This document shows positions 10,777-33,922 of a DNA stretch of 33,922 nt, in pieces. This DNA is from a virus. Lineage: Duplodnaviria; Heunggongvirae; Uroviricota; Caudoviricetes. Under the pieces are notes generated by a model, which saw only the letters and a list, made by a program, of their open reading frames with translations, ran no database searches and was not told where the DNA came from. The first letter of the stretch is position 1, and each line of letters opens with the position of its first letter. The DNA is taken from the IMG/VR virus record IMGVR_UViG_2630968639_000008, one strand, 5' to 3'. Made by a program: the position numbers and the translations under genes.

Positions 10777-12076
10777 TTACACTGGTGTGTTCAGCAAATC
10801 GTTAACGGCATCAGATGCCGGGTTACCTGCAGCCAGCGGTGCCGGTGCCCCCTGCATCAGACGATCCAGCGCAGTGTCACTGCGCGCCTGTGCACTCTGT
10901 GGTGCTGCGGCCAGAATGCGGCGGGCCGTTTCCACGGTCATACCGGGGGTTTCTGCCAGCACGCGGGCCTGTTCTTCGCGTCCGTGAGCCTCCTCACAGT
11001 TGAGGATCCCCATAATGCGGCTGTTTTCTGCCGCAACCGCTGCGGTGATCTGCGCGTTCACGTCCGGCTGCGCCGCGCTGGCGTTTTCGCCCTCCGTCGC
11101 TGGCACCACGTCAGTAACGTCAGCCTACGAAGCAGTGGCTGAAACAGTTGTTGATTGAGTCTCTTTGGTCATTCGCCCTCCTGAGAGACGGGATTTACGT
11201 GCATCCAGTGCATCACGCATGACGGTGATCGCATCGGTGCTGTTAACAAGTTCATCAGCCAGTCCGGCATCAATGGCCTCCTGACCGCTGTACACTGCAG
11301 CCTCGGTATCCAGCACAGCCTGCACGGACAGGCCGGTATATGCCGACACCTTCTGCGCAAACATCCGGCGGGTTGCATCCATCCGGGACTGCAGTGTCTC
11401 CCGGACGTCATCCGGAAGATGGCTGTAGGGGTTGCCATCCACCTTATGGCTGCCGCTGTAAATCAGCGTGATTTCCACGCCCTGTTTCTCCAGCGCAGCA
11501 CCGTAATTACTGTGAGCCATCATGACGCCGATGGAGCCTGTCCGGGCGGTCTGCGTGACCAGACGCCGGGAGGCGGCGCTGGCAAGCAGCTGACCTGCAC
11601 TGCAGTTCATGTCGTTGGCCAGCGCCCATACCGGTTTTATGTCTCGCACACGGGCGATGATGTCAGCACAGTCAAATGCTCCCGCCACCATCCCGCCCGG
11701 TGTGTCCATATCGAGCAGAATGCCGTCCACCATCGGATCGCTGGCAGCCTGTTGCAGACGGGCGATAATGCCGTTGTAACCGGTCATTCCCGAATACGGC
11801 TGCAGCGCCCGCGTCCGGCTGACCAGCGTACCGGACACCGGCAGCACGGCGATGCCGTTCATGACCTGATAACTGCGGGCCTGTCGTGGTCCGTCATCAT
11901 CACCGGATAACGCCAGCGCCGCGGGTGCCTCTCCGGCAGTCAGGCTGTCGCCGGACACCGCATCCGTCAGGCGACTGATCCCAAGCTGGCCTGCAAGCGC
12001 ACAAAAGAAAATCCGCGCATAGGCGGGTTCAAGCATCAGCGGCTCATTAAAAGCCATGCTGGCAATATGCGGGAGA

Positions 12077-12096
<20 letters not shown>
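10777..12096 (-). pseudogene. C: Prohead protease/scaffold gene C with nested Nu3, interrupted by a single in-frame TAG at 11127..11125
   Basis: GTG start at 12096..12094 preceded by GGAGGAG; the frame is otherwise continuous to the stop at 10777 (439 codons, lambda C length). Reading across the TAG gives ...TVSATAS*ADVTDVVPATEGE... Uninterrupted segments are 11125..12096 and 10777..11109. Would be functional only with amber suppression. Confidence 0.75.
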
Positions 12097-15777
<3,681 letters not shown>

Positions 15778-16906: not shown

Positions 16907-17268
16907 ACATCCCGGTTTCTTCCACCATCGCACCGGAAAAGCGACTATGAGGGTAACCCTGCGTCTGTCAGCACAGTAAAACCCGGTGTGCATCGTTTTT
17001 GATTATTCCCGCACACTCACGCAGAAGGAATTCCCCGTCGGGCTACGGTCATGGTTAATGCGGGAATACGGCGACGATACAGCGCAGCTAAAAGGGTAAT
17101 AGACGGATAGACCGATTTATTTCATTCCACAGGATTCTGAGTGTCCCCAACTTCCTCCAATAGTCTGAGCGTACACCTATATAGTTTTAATTTTCATCAA
17201 TCCATTTAACTATCGTTTAATTGTTGTCACATAGGATTCTGCCGTTTTTAACAATGCAGGATAATAAG

Positions 17269-17562
17269 ATGAAAAAAATGTTGTTTTCTGCCGCTCTGGC
17301 AATGCTTATTACAGGATGTGCTCAACAGACGTTTACTGTTGGAAACAAACCTACAGCAGTAACACCAAAGGAAACCATCACCCATCATTTCTTCGTTTCG
17401 GGAATTGGACAGGAGAAAACTGTTGATGCAGCCAAAATTTGTGGCGGCGCAGAAAATGTTGTTAAAACAGAAACCCAGCAAACATTCGTAAATGGATTTC
17501 TCGGTTTTATTACTTTAGGCATTTATACTCCGCTGGAAGCGCGTGTGTATTGCTCACAATAA
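17269..17562 (+). CDS. bor: Bor lipoprotein (serum-resistance type lysogenic-conversion protein)
   Basis: Track ORF trimmed to ATG at 17269: MKKMLFSAALAMLITGCAQQ... has a signal peptide and lipobox (LITGC); 97 aa; antisense to the lysis genes as in lambda. Confidence 0.85.
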   Translation: MKKMLFSAALAMLITGCAQQTFTVGNKPTAVTPKETITHHFFVSGIGQEKTVDAAKICGGAENVVKTETQQTFVNGFLGFITLGIYTPLEARVYCSQ

Positions 17563-18909: not shown

Positions 18910-19336
18910 AAGCTGTGTGACGAAGTAACCACTCTTAACAGCATAACCAATTTTTTACGTACGTAAACCACTAAATGATATTTGCGAGAATGCTACCGAG
19001 TATTGAAAACACCACTACAAATACATAAGCAAATCTCAACAAATAACCAACAAATAATTTCCAGTGTTATTTTCAGCCGGTTTAAATTGAACCTTCAAAT
19101 TATAGAGCACTTATAAATAACAGCCGTTAATATAAATTGGCTAATAGATTTATTTTTATTCAGCCAAGAGCCATGAATAGGATTCGATAGAAAAAAGTTC
19201 AGATAAAAATAGAGATCTACTTCACAAATCAAACGAGAAACCAAAACTTACATCTTGAAATAATCACATTGATTAGATGAATATTTATCGCGCAGTGACA
19301 TCATTTTTTAATAATAGTTCAAAAAAAGGGCTCACG

Positions 19337-20434
19337 ATGAAAAAATTAACAGTGGCAATTTCTGCTGTAGCTGCATCAGTACTGATGGCGATGTCTGCTC
19401 AGGCAGCTGAAATTTATAATAAAGACAGTAACAAGCTGGATCTGTACGGGAAAGTTAATGCTAAGCACTACTTCTCCTCTAATGATGCAGATGATGGTGA
19501 TACTACTTATGCCCGTCTTGGCTTCAAAGGTGAAACCCAAATCAACGATCAACTGACTGGTTTCGGTCAGTGGGAATATGAATTCAAAGGCAACCGCGCT
19601 GAATCTCAAGGTTCCTCCAAAGATAAAACCCGTCTTGCCTTCGCTGGCCTGAAATTCGGTGACTACGGCTCCATCGATTACGGCCGTAACTACGGTGTAG
19701 CATACGACATCGGTGCGTGGACTGACGTCCTGCCAGAATTCGGTGGTGACACTTGGACTCAAACCGACGTGTTCATGACTCAACGTGCAACTGGTGTTGC
19801 AACCTATCGTAACAACGACTTCTTTGGTCTGGTTGATGGTCTGAATTTTGCTGCTCAGTACCAAGGCAAAAACGATCGTAGCGATTTCGATAACTACACT
19901 GAAGGTAACGGTGATGGCTTCGGTTTCTCTGCTACCTATGAATACGAAGGATTCGGTATCGGTGCAACTTATGCGAAATCTGATCGTACCGACACTCAAG
20001 TTAATGCAGGGAAAGTTCTTCCTGAAGTATTTGCTTCCGGTAAAAATGCAGAAGTTTGGGCCGCAGGTCTGAAATATGACGCTAACAACATTTACCTGGC
20101 CACTACCTATTCTGAAACCCAGAATATGACTGTATTTGCTGATCACTTCGTTGCTAATAAAGCCCAAAACTTCGAAGCTGTTGCACAATATCAGTTCGAT
20201 TTCGGTCTGCGTCCGTCCGTTGCTTACCTGCAATCTAAAGGTAAGGATCTTGGAGTATGGGGCGATCAGGACTTAGTCAAATATGTTGATGTAGGTGCAA
20301 CCTATTACTTCAACAAAAATATGTCTACTTTCGTTGATTACAAAATCAACCTGCTTGACAAAAATGACTTCACTAAAGCACTCGGTGTAAGCACTGATGA
20401 CATCGTTGCTGTAGGTCTGGTTTACCAGTTCTAA
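19337..20434 (+). CDS. OmpC/OmpF-family general porin (prophage NmpC/Lc-type), apparently intact
   Basis: 365 aa from ATG 19337 (track ORF starts upstream): signal peptide [29 protein letters not shown], porin beta-barrel hallmarks, C-terminal ...VGLVYQF; long AT-rich promoter region upstream; antisense to Q and S as in DLP12 nmpC. Confidence 0.85.
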
Positions 20435-22497: not shown

Positions 22498-22616
22498 GCT
22501 TCACCTCCGCAGAGGTCAAACGCTGGATGCAAAGAATTGCAGGTGCATTTCTGCATCTGTGAAGGGAGAAGAGAGTTTGGATTGTATGTGCGCATAAACG
22601 TCCCCGTTTAGCGCAG

Positions 22617-22649
22617 AAGTCACCGGAGGAGTTCAAACTCCGGTGACTT
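22617..22649. repeat. Perfect 12-bp inverted repeat (AAGTCACCGGAG ... CTCCGGTGACTT) with a 9-nt loop
   Basis: Seen directly; lies at the junction between the nin genes and the AT-rich cargo; no clean U-tract on either strand. Confidence 0.7.
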
Positions 22650-22718
22650 AATTATGACAAGTTGATTATTGAAAATCAAAAGTCATTTAAACAATAATGA
22701 TACCCCGCAAGAGATTTC

Positions 22719-23120
22719 TTATTTTAACTCATAGATCAGACAGTCAACGATTTCTAAACCATTTACCATAGAATTAGAAACGCGAACTTTACCATCGTTG
22801 ACTCTAGCAAATCCTTTTAACATTTTATAAATAAAAGCTGAATCCCCCTTAGCCTCAATTGCTTCTAATGGTATCGGCTTATACTTTTTTGATATGCTAT
22901 TTCTATTTATCTCACTGATTTTTCTATATATTTCTGCCGGTCCACGTTCTGAGAAGTCACTGATAACTAAAATATATCTCCAAGATAGATCTGGGTAATA
23001 AAACCACATTGCAGCATCAATAGTTAAATTCTGTAACTTGAGTTTTTTTAATAAAAATTGACCTGAGAATTCCATATCTTTTGTCAACTCTCTGCCGATT
23101 ACCAGTGTGCTTTTACCCAT
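22719..23120 (-). CDS. Hypothetical protein, downstream partner of the HEPN-like gene (overlapping, translationally coupled)
   Basis: 133-aa ORF; ATG at 23120 with GGAG 9 nt upstream; overlaps the upstream gene by 22 nt; AT-rich codon usage; no motif recognised. Confidence 0.5.
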   Translation of the reverse strand: MGKSTLVIGRELTKDMEFSGQFLLKKLKLQNLTIDAAMWFYYPDLSWRYILVISDFSERGPAEIYRKISEINRNSISKKYKPIPLEAIEAKGDSAFIYKMLKGFARVNDGKVRVSNSMVNGLEIVDCLIYELK

Positions 23121-23515
23121 TTCAAAACTCCAGAATTTTGGTCACCTACAGCATCAAACAATTGTTCGGCCATAGCTTTACTTATGTTATTGTCGTATCT
23201 AAATTGCTCGCTCCAGTCTTTAACGACCGACCAGTTAATCTCCAACGAAACATCATTTTTTGCGTCAGCAATCAAAATTTGATGTAAGTTGGCAATTTTG
23301 AGAAGTTGCGACAAATCATGAGTATATGAATCATTTACGACTTTTTTGTTTGGAAACTCATGTTGTAAAAATGACTTGGCAATACAGGCCTTCAATGCAC
23401 ATTCAACTGCATACCCACAAAGATAATATGCACCATGAAAAAAGCCATGATCAAGCAAGCATTTGGCCTCATTAAGCCTAGTGTCAGATAATGCTTCAAG
23501 GTCGTTTTTATTCAT
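23099..23515 (-). CDS. HEPN-domain-like protein (candidate toxin or abortive-infection nuclease)
   Basis: 138-aa ORF; helical pattern GAYYLCGYAVECALKACIAKSF, THDLSQLL and C-terminal RYDNN resemble HEPN four-helix-bundle proteins; AT-rich; TATAAT sits immediately upstream of the ATG. Confidence 0.55.
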   Translation of the reverse strand: MNKNDLEALSDTRLNEAKCLLDHGFFHGAYYLCGYAVECALKACIAKSFLQHEFPNKKVVNDSYTHDLSQLLKIANLHQILIADAKNDVSLEINWSVVKDWSEQFRYDNNISKAMAEQLFDAVGDQNSGVLKWVKAHW

Positions 23516-23979: not shown

Positions 23980-24474
23980 TCATTTCCAATTGCAAGACTG
24001 TGAAATTTTTTCCACAACCTTATCAATCTCAGACAAGTCAAACTCAACTACTTGCATAGTTGATCCATAAGGTTCAAACCCAAAAATAGCTTTTTTATGC
24101 TTAGCCAAGGTCTTTATAAATTGTATTGGTTGTGGAGCAAATGCAGAATCACCGCCTTCCCCACCACCCCAAACACTCTTGACCGGCTTTCCGCCATCTA
24201 ACCGCACTGTAATTCTTGGGTTGTCCGAACCCATATAATCATTGAATGATAAATAGGCATCTGTTTTGTTATCACTACAACGCAACACCAGTGAAGTTGC
24301 ACGATCAGTACCTGCTTTGTTATATGAATCTGGTGATAAATTAAGAGCCACAAAGTCAGTCTGGTCAGTCATTTTATTTATCTCAGACTTTGTTATCCAC
24401 GGCCCTAACTTCTCTACACCAGCATTTGCTGTAAACGAGGCACTTATGACAAAGGCTAAAATAAATTTTCTCAT
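23980..24474 (-). CDS. Hypothetical secreted/periplasmic protein (moron)
   Basis: 164-aa ORF with a signal peptide (MRKFILAFVISASFTANA/GVEK), AGGAGA RBS 8 nt upstream, own terminator; AT-rich. Confidence 0.6.
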   Translation of the reverse strand: MRKFILAFVISASFTANAGVEKLGPWITKSEINKMTDQTDFVALNLSPDSYNKAGTDRATSLVLRCSDNKTDAYLSFNDYMGSDNPRITVRLDGGKPVKSVWGGGEGGDSAFAPQPIQFIKTLAKHKKAIFGFEPYGSTMQVVEFDLSEIDKVVEKISQSCNWK

Positions 24475-24620
24475 AACCCTATCTCCTTGGCTTCAAAGAA
24501 CTAAATATTATCAAGTCTCTTGCCACTAGAAAACCCACTTTATTTCCAAACTCTGATGGCATTCCTGAAAATCCGCTTCATACTCACTTGCCCCGCCCTA
24601 TCATCCTGAGTAGCTAACCG

Positions 24621-24794
24621 TTAAACAAACGTTCGCCAGACCTTACCATCAATGACCAGGATTCCTGCACGCGCCATTTTAGCTGCTGCCTGATTTATGC
24701 AGGTTACTGTCACACCTGTTGCCGCAGCAACGTCCTGCGCACAGAAGCTCTTATGCGTCCCCAGGTAATAAATAATTGCCTCTTTGCCCGTCAT
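24621..24794 (-). pseudogene. ren: Truncated ren-like gene (57 codons)
   Basis: ATG at 24794 overlapping the P stop; hand translation MTGKEAIIYYLGTHKSFCAQDVAAATGVTVTCINQAAAKMARAGILVIDGKVWRTFV then stop; matches the N-terminal part of lambda Ren as I recall it (full length about 96 aa). Below the track length cutoff. Confidence 0.5.
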
Positions 24795-25492: not shown

Positions 25493-26418
25493 AAATCCAC
25501 CCCGTAAATCCAGTCAGTGTTCGTCAGGTCGAGTTTTGGTTTGCCGGCTGTCACGCCAGCCTGTTGCTTGTTTCGGTTGATTTCGAGCTGGGTCCACTTG
25601 TCGCGGAGTTTGGCCGGACTCAGCACGTTACCGGACCAGAAGTTGTCCTGGCATGCCCAGCGGAACAGCACGCACATGTCGCGGTGGTTACGTCCGTCAC
25701 GTTCACGCATCAGGCGGATATCGTTAGCCCACCCTGCAAAATTCGGTTTTCTGGCTGATGGCGCGATGGTCTTCACCATGTCAAACATCCACTCTGCGGC
25801 GGTCAGGTCTTCTGCTGTCCCCCACTTGCTGCCACTCTGAATTGCAGCATCCGGTTTCACCACAGGAAGGTCGTTTTCTGGCTGGTCAGAGGATTCGCCA
25901 GAATTCTCGGACGAAAAAGGTTTTATATTGTCTTTTGTTAGTTTGTCTTTTGTGTTTACCTGATTCGGGTAAACGCCTTTACCTGATTTGGGTAAACTTT
26001 TCTTACCTGATTCAGGTAAATTTACCTCTTTCAGGTAAACTTTATTTTTCTTACCTGATTCGGGTAATGTTGACCATTCACTGACCACATTATTAATGCC
26101 GATATTTCGCCCGCTCTGAATAAGAATCCCACGCTTTACCAGAACGCTTTTTGCAGCAGAACACTTGTGCGGCAATATCCCGGTCAATTCGGAAAGTTGC
26201 TCGTTGCTCACCCAATCCAGTCTTTTATTAAAGCCATATGTTTTGCGCATGACAGCCAGGAAGACCAGAAGCTGGTGCTGTGTTAATCCGGCCAGCATCA
26301 CAGCTTCCAGCAACTCATTTGCAATGCGCGTATAACCATCGTCGAGATCTGCCACGCGCCGCTCCTTTTGTGCCACATCCGGCACTGGAAAATTGAATAT
26401 CTCAGCAGTGTTTGCCAT
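25489..26418 (-). CDS. O: Replication initiator O (lambda-like C-terminal domain, divergent N-terminal origin-binding domain)
   Basis: Trimmed to ATG 26418 (GGAGG upstream): MANTAEIFNF...; C-terminal ...KWGTAEDLTAAEWMFDMVKTIAPSARKPNFAGWANDIRLMRERDG...TNTDWIYGVDL matches lambda O; iterons lie inside the coding region. Confidence 0.85.
   Translation of the reverse strand: MANTAEIFNFPVPDVAQKERRVADLDDGYTRIANELLEAVMLAGLTQHQLLVFLAVMRKTYGFNKRLDWVSNEQLSELTGILPHKCSAAKSVLVKRGILIQSGRNIGINNVVSEWSTLPESGKKNKVYLKEVNLPESGKKSLPKSGKGVYPNQVNTKDKLTKDNIKPFSSENSGESSDQPENDLPVVKPDAAIQSGSKWGTAEDLTAAEWMFDMVKTIAPSARKPNFAGWANDIRLMRERDGRNHRDMCVLFRWACQDNFWSGNVLSPAKLRDKWTQLEINRNKQQAGVTAGKPKLDLTNTDWIYGVDL
25956..26067. repeat. 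Origin of replication: five 17-bp palindromic iterons (TTACC-N7-GGTAA) with adjacent AT-rich region 25921-25955
   Basis: Iterons at 25956-25972, 25979-25995, 26003-26019, 26022-26038, 26051-26067, inside O; an AT-rich tract follows in the O reading direction, as in ori-lambda. Confidence 0.75.
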
Positions 26419-26504
26419 AATTCCTCCCGCAATGAGTGTGTTACGATTTGCACCTGAAAGTCGGTTCTGTTCGCGCAGACCGGCTTTCGCCATTTCCGAA
26501 CCTG

Positions 26505-27050
26505 TCATATTGCCCCCAGCATGGTGGTGACCATCGCCATCAGTGGACCAGCCAAATCCGGGTCCACACGAAACATCGACACAATGCCTTCACTCATCTC
26601 CTTCAGTTTCTGGTGGCGTGGTGCGTTGAGAATGACAGCCTGTTTTGCCTCACTGAGTTCCTTTTCCATTTCAGCCAGCCGAGCCATGTAGCTATCCTGC
26701 TCAACCAGGTGGCCGCGATATTCCAGCGGTAGTACCGCCAGAATTGCCGGGGTCAGTTCACGCACGTTATTTCGGTATTTTTCAGAATCGAATTTGTTAT
26801 CGAGGAAGCGGAACAGCTTCTGGCGTGCACGGCTGACATCATCAGGGAAATCGATGGTGCCGCCGCCCTGCTCCCGATACTCATTCACAATGAGTGCGGC
26901 AACAACATCCTGATTATCTGCAGCCGACCAGGCGCGAACGGCATCACGGATTTTTTCGTGGCCTGGCGCCTGTTTTGTTTGAGAACGATTTATCACCGCA
27001 GTCGGGCTAAATCCGCTAGTCTGTTGGTATGTAAGTGGTTGCATAGTCAT
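26505..27050 (-). CDS. Hypothetical protein in the cII position (possibly YdaT-family)
   Basis: 181-aa ORF between cro and O on the early-right strand; not lambda CII-like in size or sequence; family assignment is a tentative recollection. Confidence 0.4.
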   Translation of the reverse strand: MTMQPLTYQQTSGFSPTAVINRSQTKQAPGHEKIRDAVRAWSAADNQDVVAALIVNEYREQGGGTIDFPDDVSRARQKLFRFLDNKFDSEKYRNNVRELTPAILAVLPLEYRGHLVEQDSYMARLAEMEKELSEAKQAVILNAPRHQKLKEMSEGIVSMFRVDPDLAGPLMAMVTTMLGAI

Positions 27051-27074: not shown

Positions 27075-27302
27075 TTAGGCGGCAGAATTACTCGCGTTAA
27101 ACAATGGTGCGAGGTCGGGACGAATATCTGCTGGTTTAATCTTTCCACCAGTGGCTGAGACAATTTTCATTACATAGCGGGCATCAATTCCGCCACCGTG
27201 TAGCCAACGCCAAACTGTGGGTTGGGCTACACCGCATAGATCTGCCAGTCGTTTTTGACTACCTGTAATACTGATTGCGAGTTGAATGGTTTGATTTGTC
27301 AT
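27075..27302 (-). CDS. cro: Cro-like HTH repressor (YdaS/Cro family)
   Basis: 75 aa from ATG 27302; HTH region QKRLADLCGVAQPTVWRWL; divergent from cI across the operator region. Confidence 0.7.
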   Translation of the reverse strand: MTNQTIQLAISITGSQKRLADLCGVAQPTVWRWLHGGGIDARYVMKIVSATGGKIKPADIRPDLAPLFNASNSAA

Positions 27303-27412
27303 TATCAATTCCTATTGGTATTGCAATGAATAAATAATAGCAATGCGTATTAACCCAAGCAATAGCAAAACGTGTTTTGACCATCAATACGCAAGCGTAT
27401 AAATTAAAACTT
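27303..27412. promoter_or_regulatory. Right operator/promoter region (OR): three related 14-bp operator sites with candidate pR and pRM
   Basis: Sites ATAGCAATGCGTAT (27337-27350), ATAGCAAAACGTGT (27362-27375), ATACGCAAGCGTAT (27387-27400, perfect palindrome), spaced 25 bp. Candidate pR on minus strand: -35 TTGCTT (27362..27357), 17-bp spacer, -10 TATTAT (27339..27334). Candidate pRM on plus strand: -35 TTGACC (27377-27382), -10 TAAATT (27400-27405), placing the start near the cI ATG. Confidence 0.6.
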
Positions 27413-28105
27413 ATGAAAAAAGAAACTCTTGCTGATCGCTTAAACCTAGCGATGGAACAATCTGGAATGTCTCAAGGCGCTCTTGCAAAGGCGTCTGGCG
27501 TAGCTCAACCCACAATCTGGAGACTGACAAGCGGCAACGCGCGCGGCTCAACAAAAATTGTTGAAATAGCTAATGCATTGGGTGTTCGAACAGAATGGCT
27601 CTCATCAGGCATAGGCCCGATGAGAAATGACGGTCAACAATCAGGGAAGCCTGCTGTCAGCCATTCAAAATACTTCAAGATTGACGTTCTTGATATAGAA
27701 GTCAGTGCCGGACCGGGTGTCATCAACCGTGAGTTTGTGGAAGTTCTACGCTCGGTTGAGTACTCGTTTGACGATGCTCGTCACATGTTCGATGGCAGGA
27801 AGGCGGAAAATATCCGCATTATTAACGTGCGCGGTGACAGCATGTCAGGGACGATCGAACCAGGTGACCTGCTGTTCGTTGATATCACTGTTAAATCTTT
27901 CGACGGTGATGGCATCTATGCGTTTCTGTACGACGACACTGCCCATGTAAAACGTCTTCAAATGATGAAGGATAAGCTGCTGGTTATCTCTGATAACAAG
28001 AGCTACTCGCCGTGGGACCCGATCGAGAAAGACGAGATGAACCGGGTGTTCATATTCGGTAAGGTCATTGGAAGCATGCCGCAGACGTACAGGAAGCATG
28101 GTTAA
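27413..28105 (+). CDS. cI: CI-type prophage repressor (HTH plus S24 LexA-like autopeptidase domain)
   Basis: 230 aa from ATG 27413; N-terminal HTH (MSQGALAKASGVAQPTIWRL); Ala-Gly cleavage site (EVSAGPGV), Ser in RGDSMSG and Lys in HVKRLQ; divergent from cro. Confidence 0.85.
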   Translation: MKKETLADRLNLAMEQSGMSQGALAKASGVAQPTIWRLTSGNARGSTKIVEIANALGVRTEWLSSGIGPMRNDGQQSGKPAVSHSKYFKIDVLDIEVSAGPGVINREFVEVLRSVEYSFDDARHMFDGRKAENIRIINVRGDSMSGTIEPGDLLFVDITVKSFDGDGIYAFLYDDTAHVKRLQMMKDKLLVISDNKSYSPWDPIEKDEMNRVFIFGKVIGSMPQTYRKHG

Positions 28106-28334
28106 TTTATCTACGACTTAAGGGAGCGAAGGTTAAGGTTTATACCACTCGGATTAGATATTGCACTAAATTCTCTATAAGAACGCCAAATCTGTTTGCA
28201 TATTTCAGTAAATATTCTCGTTGTTAGCTGAGATTTGTTGCTACTGTCAGCAAAATGTCCCCCTATCTCGTAGCGGTTTTTATTTCGAATCATTATGTTA
28301 AGATGTTTCTGATTATAATGAATGGAAACATAAA

Positions 28335-28715
28335 ATGAGAAAAATCCTAATCGCTGCCATGATGGCATCTCTATTGGCTGGGTGTGCTTCTTCAGGCAAC
28401 CAGCAACTCAAAAATGAAACTGAAACTAGTGTCCAGTCTAAACTTCAGGAAGGTAAAACAACCAAGAATGAGGTTAAATCTTACTTTGGTTCTCCTGATG
28501 CTGTTTCATATACTGACAGTGGAAACGAGATCTGGAAGTACGCCTTTGCAAAAGTAAAAGTTAATGGCACCACTTTTATTCCATTCTATGGATTATTCCA
28601 TAATGGAACGAACGGTACGAAAAAAGAACTTACTATTCTTTTTAACGATGACACGATTAAGAAATACACAATGTCAGAAACCCAAATAAACTCGAAATCA
28701 GGTTGGGCTGACTGA
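28335..28715 (+). CDS. Hypothetical lipoprotein downstream of cI (rex-position moron)
   Basis: 126 aa; signal peptide and lipobox (LLAGC); AT-rich; same strand as cI; followed by a terminator; mid-region resembles a BamE/SmpA_OmlA-like fold only loosely. Confidence 0.6.
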   Translation: MRKILIAAMMASLLAGCASSGNQQLKNETETSVQSKLQEGKTTKNEVKSYFGSPDAVSYTDSGNEIWKYAFAKVKVNGTTFIPFYGLFHNGTNGTKKELTILFNDDTIKKYTMSETQINSKSGWAD

Positions 28716-28723
28716 TAATCATA

Positions 28724-28750
28724 CCCGGCAACCGCGCCGGGTTTTCTTTT
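28724..28750 (+). terminator. Rho-independent terminator after the lipoprotein gene
   Basis: Stem CCCGGC / GCCGGG (28724-28729, 28736-28741) followed by TTTTCTTTT. Confidence 0.65.
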
Positions 28751-28832
28751 CCTCCCCCTCATAACTCATACCGTCCAAAAAACCACCACACCTCACTTCA
28801 GTTATCGCTATGCGATTCAAGTCACAAAATTA

Positions 28833-28918
28833 ATTCTTTTTGCTATCAAACATTTAATATCAAAACACATCAACTAATAGCAATAAGTATTGATATCACC
28901 AATAGCAATAGCTATTAT
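28833..28918. promoter_or_regulatory. Left operator/promoter region (OL) with candidate pL
   Basis: Operator-like sites ATAGCAATAAGTAT (28877-28890) and ATAGCAATAGCTAT (28902-28915), 25 bp apart, plus an inverted copy ATAGCAAAAAGAAT (minus, 28846..28833). Candidate pL: -35 TTGATA (28890-28895), 17-bp spacer, -10 TATTAT (28913-28918), overlapping the operators. Confidence 0.55.
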
Positions 28919-29024
28919 CACCATATCGCAACAACACAACGATACGGCAACCACCTGATTCACCGTTGCGATGACCGCTTAGATCCGCAGCTTGAATTTC
29001 AGCTGGCTTCGGGGAGTGCGAGGG

Positions 29025-29402
29025 ATGAAACGGACGCGTGAACGTCGGTGTGACCAGCTGAAATCAACTCAACATTTCATACCTCAGTCGCTTCAACGAG
29101 GCGGCTTAGTTATGACAACCGGCGGCCATCCACCGCCTGAATACGCGCAGAAGTCTCTATATGTTCAGCAGCCCAGCTTACGGGCAGGAGTTTTTATGGT
29201 TCATCAACATTACGGAACACAGACCGTTAATCGCGGCGCGGTCATGCCAGGAATGCTGGTCAAACACAAAGATGGTACCTGGACTGCATCAGCTAATTTA
29301 CGCGGACGGCTTTATCTGCATCGCGGCATCGAGCGCACTTATACCCGTGATTTGCTCGTGGAAGTTTTTCTCGACGGACGCGGTAACGGCCTGAATCACT
29401 AA
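29025..29402 (+). CDS. Hypothetical first protein of the early-left operon (N position; not clearly N-like)
   Basis: The track ORF begins at TTG 28992; first ATG is 29025 (MKRTRERRCDQ...), Arg-rich N-terminus but the rest does not resemble N; the stop is immediately upstream of the gam leader. Confidence 0.35.
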   Translation: MKRTRERRCDQLKSTQHFIPQSLQRGGLVMTTGGHPPPEYAQKSLYVQQPSLRAGVFMVHQHYGTQTVNRGAVMPGMLVKHKDGTWTASANLRGRLYLHRGIERTYTRDLLVEVFLDGRGNGLNH

Positions 29403-33721: not shown

Positions 33722-33922
33722 ATGCAACACGAACTACAACCTGATTCACTGGTTGATTTGAAATTCATCATGGCTGATACTGGCTTTGGTAAAACCTTCA
33801 TCTATGACCGGATTAAGTCCGGCGACCTGCCAAAAGCCAAAGTTATCCACGGGCGAGCAAGATGGTTATATCGTGACCATTGTGAATTCAAAAATAAGCT
33901 CTTAAGCCGCGCCAATGGGTAA
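33722..33922 (+). CDS. xis: AlpA/Xis-type excisionase or transcriptional regulator
   Basis: 66-aa ORF with an AlpA-like HTH (GFGKTFIYDRIKSGDLPKAKVIHGRARWLYRD); stop is the last codon of the window; an integrase is expected just beyond. Confidence 0.6.
   Translation: MQHELQPDSLVDLKFIMADTGFGKTFIYDRIKSGDLPKAKVIHGRARWLYRDHCEFKNKLLSRANG

Follow-up and report, generated by a model that had tools for sequence, protein, structure and literature searches.

A YdaT-family relative of phi80 CII in the cII slot of a lambdoid prophage, and the conserved inverted repeats predicted to serve it

The gene lying between the Cro-like gene and the replication gene O of a lambdoid prophage (IMG/VR record IMGVR_UViG_2630968639_000008; "the window" is the whole stretch of 33,922 nucleotides analysed here) is, by its sequence, a member of the YdaT family and, within it, of the phi80-CII subfamily, whose job would be like that of lambda CII although the two families are unrelated. 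We place the probability that its product is the CII-equivalent lysogeny regulator of this prophage at roughly 0.85. The identity of the gene and the function of its family are already known, since isolated phages carry identical genes under the name cII and published work covers the function of the family. What the computational analysis adds is modest, namely an embedded-promoter geometry and a regulon with three classes of sites, for which no prior account in the phi80 subfamily was found in a literature search that stopped short of the phi80 genome paper. Family membership, genomic position, and the presence, conservation and geometry of the motif are established here. The comparative sites offer testable targets in a family known so far from studies of just two distant members, and they overturn nothing known.

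YdaS and YdaT in the literature

The toxin-antitoxin (TA) label carried by YdaS/YdaT is the product of a prediction algorithm, and a study from 2010 found no evidence for it (reported in PMC5917428). In CP-933P, Jurenas et al. showed the pair not to be a TA system, YdaT to be non-toxic, and the two proteins to be analogues of Cro and CII: YdaS and the repressor compete for the operators, while YdaT activates PRE933P, a promoter located between ydaS and ydaT that is silent without it. The same authors remarked that this YdaT is homologous to phi80 CII (PMC8630535). Structural work by Prolic-Kalinsek et al. described YdaT as a tetramer made of a POU-like HTH domain and a long, tetramerising C-terminal helix, and the footprinted site reads 5'-TTGATT-N6-AATCAA-3' (PMC9986795). 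Wons et al. located the box of Rac YdaT, ATGATTCATGAAAATCAA, over the ydaT start codon and reported that binding to it activates racR; they also reported that, at an identity of only 30%, the Rac and CP-933P proteins each recognise the box of the other (PMC11879457).

The cII-slot gene and its relatives

The initial annotation had described a 181-aa ORF devoid of CII-like sequence in the cII slot, preceded by a YdaS-like Cro. The ORF is present on the minus strand, with its start now corrected (Table 1). The 179-aa version is the more likely one: its ATG at 27044 has, as read from the sequence, the better Shine-Dalgarno spacing (AAGG, 8 nt), and RefSeq places the start at this second ATG in the DNA of E. 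coli STEC409 which, like that of ETEC1746, is 100% identical to the region. Residue 17, where the codon is one for M, V or L, was rejected as a start, since no Shine-Dalgarno sequence is found there whereas the upstream ATG has a conserved one (6/6 phages), and no shorter in-frame start gives the short CII-like protein that a mis-called start might have concealed. Regarding lambda CII itself, Pfam Phage_CII gives no match at E ≤ 0.1 and BLASTP none at E ≤ 100, the lambda CII query being confirmed by 100% tblastn matches; the original observation is thus confirmed, the protein being without similarity to lambda CII and outside its family.

The profile search proposed at that stage for the YdaT and CII families matched the former and not a conventional CII. 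Pfam PF06254 (YdaT) scores 102 bits for a cut-off of 21 (E 2.4e-29), and PHROG 163, "CII-like transcriptional activator", is covered over 163 of its 168 profile positions (E 7.4e-67); RefSeq names the product "toxin YdaT domain-containing protein". The Cro-like protein matches Pfam YdaS_toxin (E 1e-14), P22_Cro only weakly (0.004), and PHROG 35, transcriptional repressor. The suspected YdaS/YdaT pair therefore stands, both Pfam families lying above their gathering cut-offs. The replication genes O (Phage_rep_O, 4e-34) and P (4e-61) are recognised by Pfam in the flank, as is the CI-like repressor (Peptidase_S24, 1.5e-18, plus HTH_3). The gene is consequently found where YdaT-family genes are expected, 3' of a YdaS/Cro-like gene, 5' of the replication genes and opposite the repressor.

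In phage genomes searched by tblastn, the cII of Escherichia phage PhiR70_1 is 100% identical, and the annotated cII of 4A7, Lambda_4C10, D2, 3W, 1W and others 95-99% identical. Identity falls to 73% for Enterobacter phage CobraSix, 67% for phi80 cII, 66% for the "CII protein" of mEp237, and 53% for HK639 and HK225, while Rac-type YdaT is a distant relative with about 34-36% identity over the HTH domain. The lysis-lysogeny decision of this prophage had been called unclear, a view that is difficult to maintain for a protein 67% identical to phi80 cII and 95-100% identical to the cII of viable lambdoid phages. A large-database search retrieved 711 relatives across Enterobacteriaceae, all with PF06254, and the 3.5-kb region (at least 80% of its length) is present in 762 complete E. 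coli genomes.

Table 1. Coordinates of the features of the immunity region and of the nin leader discussed in the text
Feature	Position	Strand	Description	Basis
cII-slot ORF	26505..27050	-	181 aa	mechanical ORF listing
phi80-type CII/YdaT-family factor	26505..27044	-	179 aa, ATG at 27044	RefSeq WP_001182882.1
Cro analogue, YdaS-family HTH	27075..27302 (or ..27308)	-	75-77 aa	Pfam, PHROG, RefSeq
CI-like repressor, HTH + S24 autopeptidase	27413..28105	+	divergent from cro	Pfam, RefSeq start 27413
Degenerate YdaT box GTGATAAATCGTTCTCAA (minus-strand reading)	26979..26996	.	+48 from cII ATG	
-10-like hexamer TAGTCT of predicted PRE-like promoter	27017..27022	+	20 nt from +48 box	
Perfect YdaT box TTGATTATTGAAAATCAA	22662..22679	.	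182 nt upstream of ybcN (ninB slot)	
Sigma-70-like promoter TTGATT-17-CATAAT, TG-extended	22651..22679	-	toward ybcN..Q; overlapped by box	
Two-hairpin leader RNA	22591..22649	-	directly downstream of nin promoter; loops conserved, stems vary	
Exact TTGATW-N6-WATCAA box	27291..27308	.	cro start codon in its spacer; putative extra operator	
Three 18-nt operator-like repeats, 25 bp apart	27336..27403	.	cro-cI intergenic	
PRM-like promoter TTGACC-17-TAAATT	27377-27405		start essentially at cI ATG (27413)	
Hairpin antisense to cII 3' end	26456..26488	+	position of phi80 M3 RNA, lambda oop	z -2.5

HTH domain and predicted structure

With the single sequence as query, phmmer against the YdaT entries of the PDB detects CP-933P YdaT (8bt1, E 1.9e-4) and 3c4r (E 3.3e-4), and a profile of 36 family members detects them at 1.9e-8 and 2.1e-7, respectively, over residues 24-106, i.e. 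the HTH domain. By this profile homology, the protein would carry an N-terminal POU-like HTH homologous to the solved structures 8bt1 and 3c4r. R72, Q75, K76 and R79, invariant in the 36-sequence alignment, align with the R-x-x-Q-K-x-x-R of the CP-933P recognition helix, R79 corresponding to the conserved arginine R60. The AlphaFold2 model built from the same alignment is of low confidence (pLDDT 63); it predicts residues 1-28 as disordered, helices at 29-40, 45-58, 70-83, 88-104 and 107-110, an 11-residue loop (59-69) between the second and third of them, and a long helix (119-138) followed by two helices that are absent from the 141-aa YdaT proteins. An unusually long loop between HTH helices alpha2 and alpha3 is a mark of the YdaT family. 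Foldseek of this model against the PDB gave no match at E ≤ 0.001, so that confirmation at the level of the fold failed and the assignment relies on sequence and profile homology. As a point against the model proposed below, the protein shares only about 30% identity with the two YdaT proteins of known specificity.

Inverted repeats in the window and in related loci

It had been proposed to look for the lambda CII motif TTGC-N6-TTGC upstream of cI and int. The 33.9-kb window contains no such site, for 2.6 expected by chance, and the cognate motif would instead be the YdaT inverted repeat, of which a putative copy lies near the 5' end of the ydaT-type gene. Exact TTGATW-N6-WATCAA occurs twice in the window for 0.03 expected, a number reached in 1 of 100 shuffles. 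The loci compared were 80 IMG/VR loci with a near-identical cII, 80 centred on YbcN, 80 with a lambda-type CII, and 61 from genomes of different species with a cII of 40-75% identity, to which phi80, HK639, mEp237, CobraSix and PHB10 were added. In the 57 usable species-level loci (988 kb), 25 exact boxes and 79 with at most one mismatch were counted, compared to 0.3 and 7.2 in shuffles, and they fall into three positional classes: A, in the nin leader; B, at +48 in cII; and C, at xis-int.

The class B box of the window departs from the ideal palindrome by 2 mismatches, while it is exact or has a single mismatch in mEp237 and in the loci L260/262/265 and L282-287. In 54 of 54 distinct relatives, nTGATW-N6-nnTCAn is near-invariant at +48, and an antisense TAnnnT lies exactly 20 nt from it, for a background of 0.9%. 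Box and hexamer are kept by synonymous choice: isoleucine is encoded by ATA 44 times, by ATT 10 times and never by ATC, codon 9, the source of the hexamer's first T, reads NNT in every case, whichever of Asn, Ser, Asp or Gly it encodes, and the codon supplying box position 15 ends in T in all. The same arrangement is seen in Rac-SA53, with TTGATTCATGAAAATCAG and TAGCCT 20 nt away. A box 20 nt from a -10 hexamer would therefore centre the bound protein near -41.5 of a leftward promoter which, since it reads through antisense cro into cI, would be an analogue of PRE; its start is predicted at about 27029 on the plus strand. On these grounds, the box at +48 is probably a PRE-like site aimed at cI.

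Class A boxes are located 3-9 kb downstream of cII, about 177-183 nt 5' of identified ybcN/ninB-type genes, and this position is occupied in 61 of 62 close loci and in most of the 57 distant ones. The left half-site doubles as the -35 of a promoter whose CATAAT lies 17 bp downstream, 5 nt past the box in nearly all variants. Boxes at the same position in phi80, HK639 and CobraSix have conserved half-sites and different spacers, those of class A including TTCAAT, TTCCAT, TTCTGG, AAACAC, ATGAAT, TTGGGA, TGCGAT and others, and homology among mosaic variants stops exactly at the upstream edge of the box. The exact box is found in 50/62 YdaT-type loci versus 0/47 lambda-CII-type loci; in the YbcN-centred set, the box is present in 44/50 YdaT-type loci (six being without a strict box) and in 1/5 lambda-type ones. 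The whole leader module is nevertheless itself linked to the YdaT-type cII (62/62 versus 1/47 lambda-CII-type loci), and shared ancestry could therefore explain the association of the box. A box centred near -26 has what looks like the geometry of a repressor site, and no leftward promoter at the 20-nt geometry is present beside it. Repression of the nin-leader promoter by the CII-like protein is accordingly proposed with some reserve, at slightly less than even odds; as a counterpoint, a promoter ahead of Q repressed only by CII raises the question of how it is silenced in the lysogen.

Two hairpins follow this promoter, with conserved loops, CUGAACA (CCUGAACAA/C) and GGGGAC, and stems that differ between phages and species (other copies at L002 38747-38810 and L163 11925-11985); a terminator-like hairpin comes next (22538-22555). 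They emerge from per-sequence folding, while RNAalifold returned no consensus structure for the leader because of alignment indels, and Rfam at gathering thresholds reports no family anywhere in the window. A role of the leader hairpin as a nut or put site was rejected, as it resembles neither the phi80 nutL core nor the putL-like RNA of HK639. The replication genes are separated from the nin leader by an inserted AT-rich cassette of two genes (22719-23515, minus strand), in which a HEPN-domain protein (138 aa, Pfam 3e-6) overlaps a 133-aa protein for which Pfam gives nothing; the cassette may represent a HEPN/MNT-like toxin-antitoxin or a defence moron.

Class C boxes lie 5.5-8.9 kb upstream of cII, directly 5' of a DUF1233 excisionase and a tyrosine integrase, and are followed at 20 nt by TATACT or TATAAT. 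L283 (2399-2442) provides an example, the others being L258, L261, L262, L263, L266, L268, L269, L271, L277, L280, L289 and L307, all in related prophages of other Enterobacteriaceae. Standing directly before xis-int, such a box would mark an analogue of pI. The absence of a class C site from the window is explained by its torI/KplE1-type integrase module. The window ends exactly at torI, the KplE1-type excisionase, next to dsdC (33722-33922), so that the integrase lies beyond it, at the opposite end of the prophage; the Rac locus, guessed from the chromosomal coordinate as the prophage site, was discarded as the prophage ends at torI beside dsdC.

The other exact box of the window covers the start of cro, roughly at positions +25 to +42 of the transcript predicted from PR, and might allow PR or cro to be blocked by the CII-like protein. 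Being tied to this one cro allele, with a similar box in just 1 of the 57 species-level loci, it offers no measure of its conservation.

Prophage context

The PRM-like promoter would give, by its position, a near-leaderless cI mRNA, as in lambda and CP-933P. Gene O is probably called 30 codons too long: an RBS and ATG at 26418 align with the phi80 O start, which leaves an 86-nt gap after cII that holds the antisense hairpin, itself without a good T-tract. The annotation of the interval from cI to kil (28106-29400) contains neither an N-like nor a cIII-like gene. Cargo genes include a BamE-like lipoprotein just downstream of cI, in the rex position (28335-28715, plus strand), a secreted protein annotated TagO (23980-24474, minus strand), a porin between Q and the lysis genes (19277-20434, plus strand) and an Iss/Bor-type lipoprotein (17221-17562, plus strand). 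The head protease/scaffold gene (S49 peptidase; 10777-12231, minus strand) is split by an internal stop, and ren (24526-24794, minus strand) is frameshifted in the identical STEC409 copy, so that this otherwise complete-looking prophage may be defective.

Proposed mechanism and alternatives

In the model favoured here, the protein would be made from PR after infection, its gene lying 3' of that of the Cro-like YdaS, and would by homology form tetramers that bind TTGATW-N6-WATCAA inverted repeats. The YdaT-type site within the first 66 nt of cII itself (26979-26996) would recruit RNA polymerase to the PRE-like promoter, which would fire back through cro into cI and thereby yield cI mRNA and antisense cro RNA, leading to lysogeny. 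The perfect site at 22662-22679, the second of the scheme, overlies both the -35 and the spacer of the conserved promoter heading ninB-Q, and binding there would most simply mean repression, with a delay of Q and of late-gene expression. In related prophages, a third site with PRE geometry before xis-int would activate these two genes. We infer the binding of the sites by this particular protein, the direction of regulation and the tetramerisation. The complete scheme, in which one box serves in two geometries, activating at -41.5 (PRE in the first 22 codons; xis-int) and repressing at about -26 the constitutive-looking promoter of the structured two-hairpin ninB-Q leader, is put forward tentatively, as it is somewhat more likely to fail than to hold.

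The toxin-antitoxin-like reading given in the initial annotation would make YdaT a toxin, or part of an atypical TA or toxin-repressor module with YdaS and the repressor, with growth arrest as its role. It draws on the Pfam names YdaT_toxin and YdaS_toxin, on the RefSeq product name, and on the filamentation and death caused by overexpressed Rac YdaT (PMC11879457). Against it stand the algorithmic origin of the TA prediction, for which a 2010 study found no evidence (reported in PMC5917428), and the experimental contradiction in CP-933P, where YdaT is non-toxic and the pair was shown to consist of regulators (PMC8630535); overproduced lambda CII is toxic as well (PMC5917428), the domain is by sequence and profile a DNA-binding HTH, and viable phages carry the gene in their cII slot. 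With YdaT now described as a CII-equivalent DNA-binding factor (PMC9986795; for Rac, PMC11879457), this reading is outdated and very improbable, and the annotation "toxin YdaT domain-containing protein" of RefSeq and Pfam is misleading for a CII-equivalent lysogeny regulator found in thousands of enterobacterial prophages. The protein might also be a YdaT-family DNA binder whose main role lies with host genes, with replication or with nin only, cI being established by another route. Rac YdaT does regulate host rcsA (PMC11879457), and the window has its only perfect palindromic boxes at the nin leader and at the start of cro, with none at the PRE position. Yet the +48 box/-10 geometry is aimed at cI in 54 of 54 relatives, the same geometry recurs before xis-int, and the named homologue is phi80 cII, which makes such a role unlikely.

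Scarcely more likely is that the TTGATW-N6-WATCAA elements are not YdaT sites at all, the nin copy being a promoter with an inherited spacer and the +48 copy a run of conserved codons. TTGATT resembles a -35 and has CATAAT 17 bp on, the nin box and the leader are inherited as a single module, and the +48 box overlaps the conserved peptide M/V-I-N-R-x-Q. A mere promoter, however, would not account for a right half-site that is kept while the 6-nt spacer is free to vary, nor conserved codons for third positions that are fixed across different amino acids and for the preference of the rare ATA over an ATC that is never used; moreover, the YdaT box footprinted for two homologues is this very motif (PMC9986795, PMC11879457). 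Recognition of these boxes by the CII-like protein is thus retained as the preferred reading.

Comparison with known systems

The closest system is that of phi80, whose CII (NC_021190 gp48, "CII-like transcriptional activator") is of the same family, has 179-180 aa and occupies the slot between cro and O. Phages of the phi80/PhiR70_1 type share with the prophage the oop/M3-like hairpin after cII and the box about 180 nt upstream of the ybcN/ninB gene, while their immunity (cI/cro) alleles differ from those of the prophage. In addition, phi80 has the other int orientation, its own annotated pI and no class C box.

The YdaT proteins of CP-933P (8bt1) and Rac belong to the same Pfam family, with a homologous POU-like HTH and the conserved recognition-helix arginine, and their genes show the same ydaS-ydaT-replication order opposite the repressor. 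They have TTGATT-N6-AATCAA at the 5' end of the gene and are CII-like activators of a repressor-directed promoter (PMC9986795, PMC8630535, PMC11879457). Their identity to the present protein is, however, only about 30-35%, and they lack its N-terminal extension of about 28 residues, which is predicted to be disordered and in whose coding sequence the -10 hexamer and the box are embedded, as well as its about 40 extra C-terminal residues, modelled as two helices. As a counterpoint to the -41.5 geometry inferred here, in Rac the distance between the box and the mapped YdaT-activated promoter is about 190 bp (PMC11879457). Finally, CP-933P and Rac are cryptic remnants, whereas this prophage has full sets of structural and lysis genes.

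Lambda CII occupies the same slot and would follow the same logic, an activator site taking the place of the -35 at a PRE that lies over the start of its own gene. Nevertheless, it has 97 aa versus 179 aa here, without sequence similarity, and its site is the direct repeat TTGC-N6-TTGC whereas that of YdaT is an inverted repeat. The int promoter target of lambda CII is matched only in relatives of the prophage, and while lambda pI starts inside xis, a class C pI-like promoter would transcribe both xis and int. The lambda oop RNA has its positional analogue in the antisense hairpin. The third lambda target is the antisense promoter PaQ inside Q, in place of which the prophage seems to use direct promoter occlusion ahead of nin-Q; if the three-site regulon is true, late genes would be delayed by that occlusion and not, as in lambda, by the PaQ antisense RNA.
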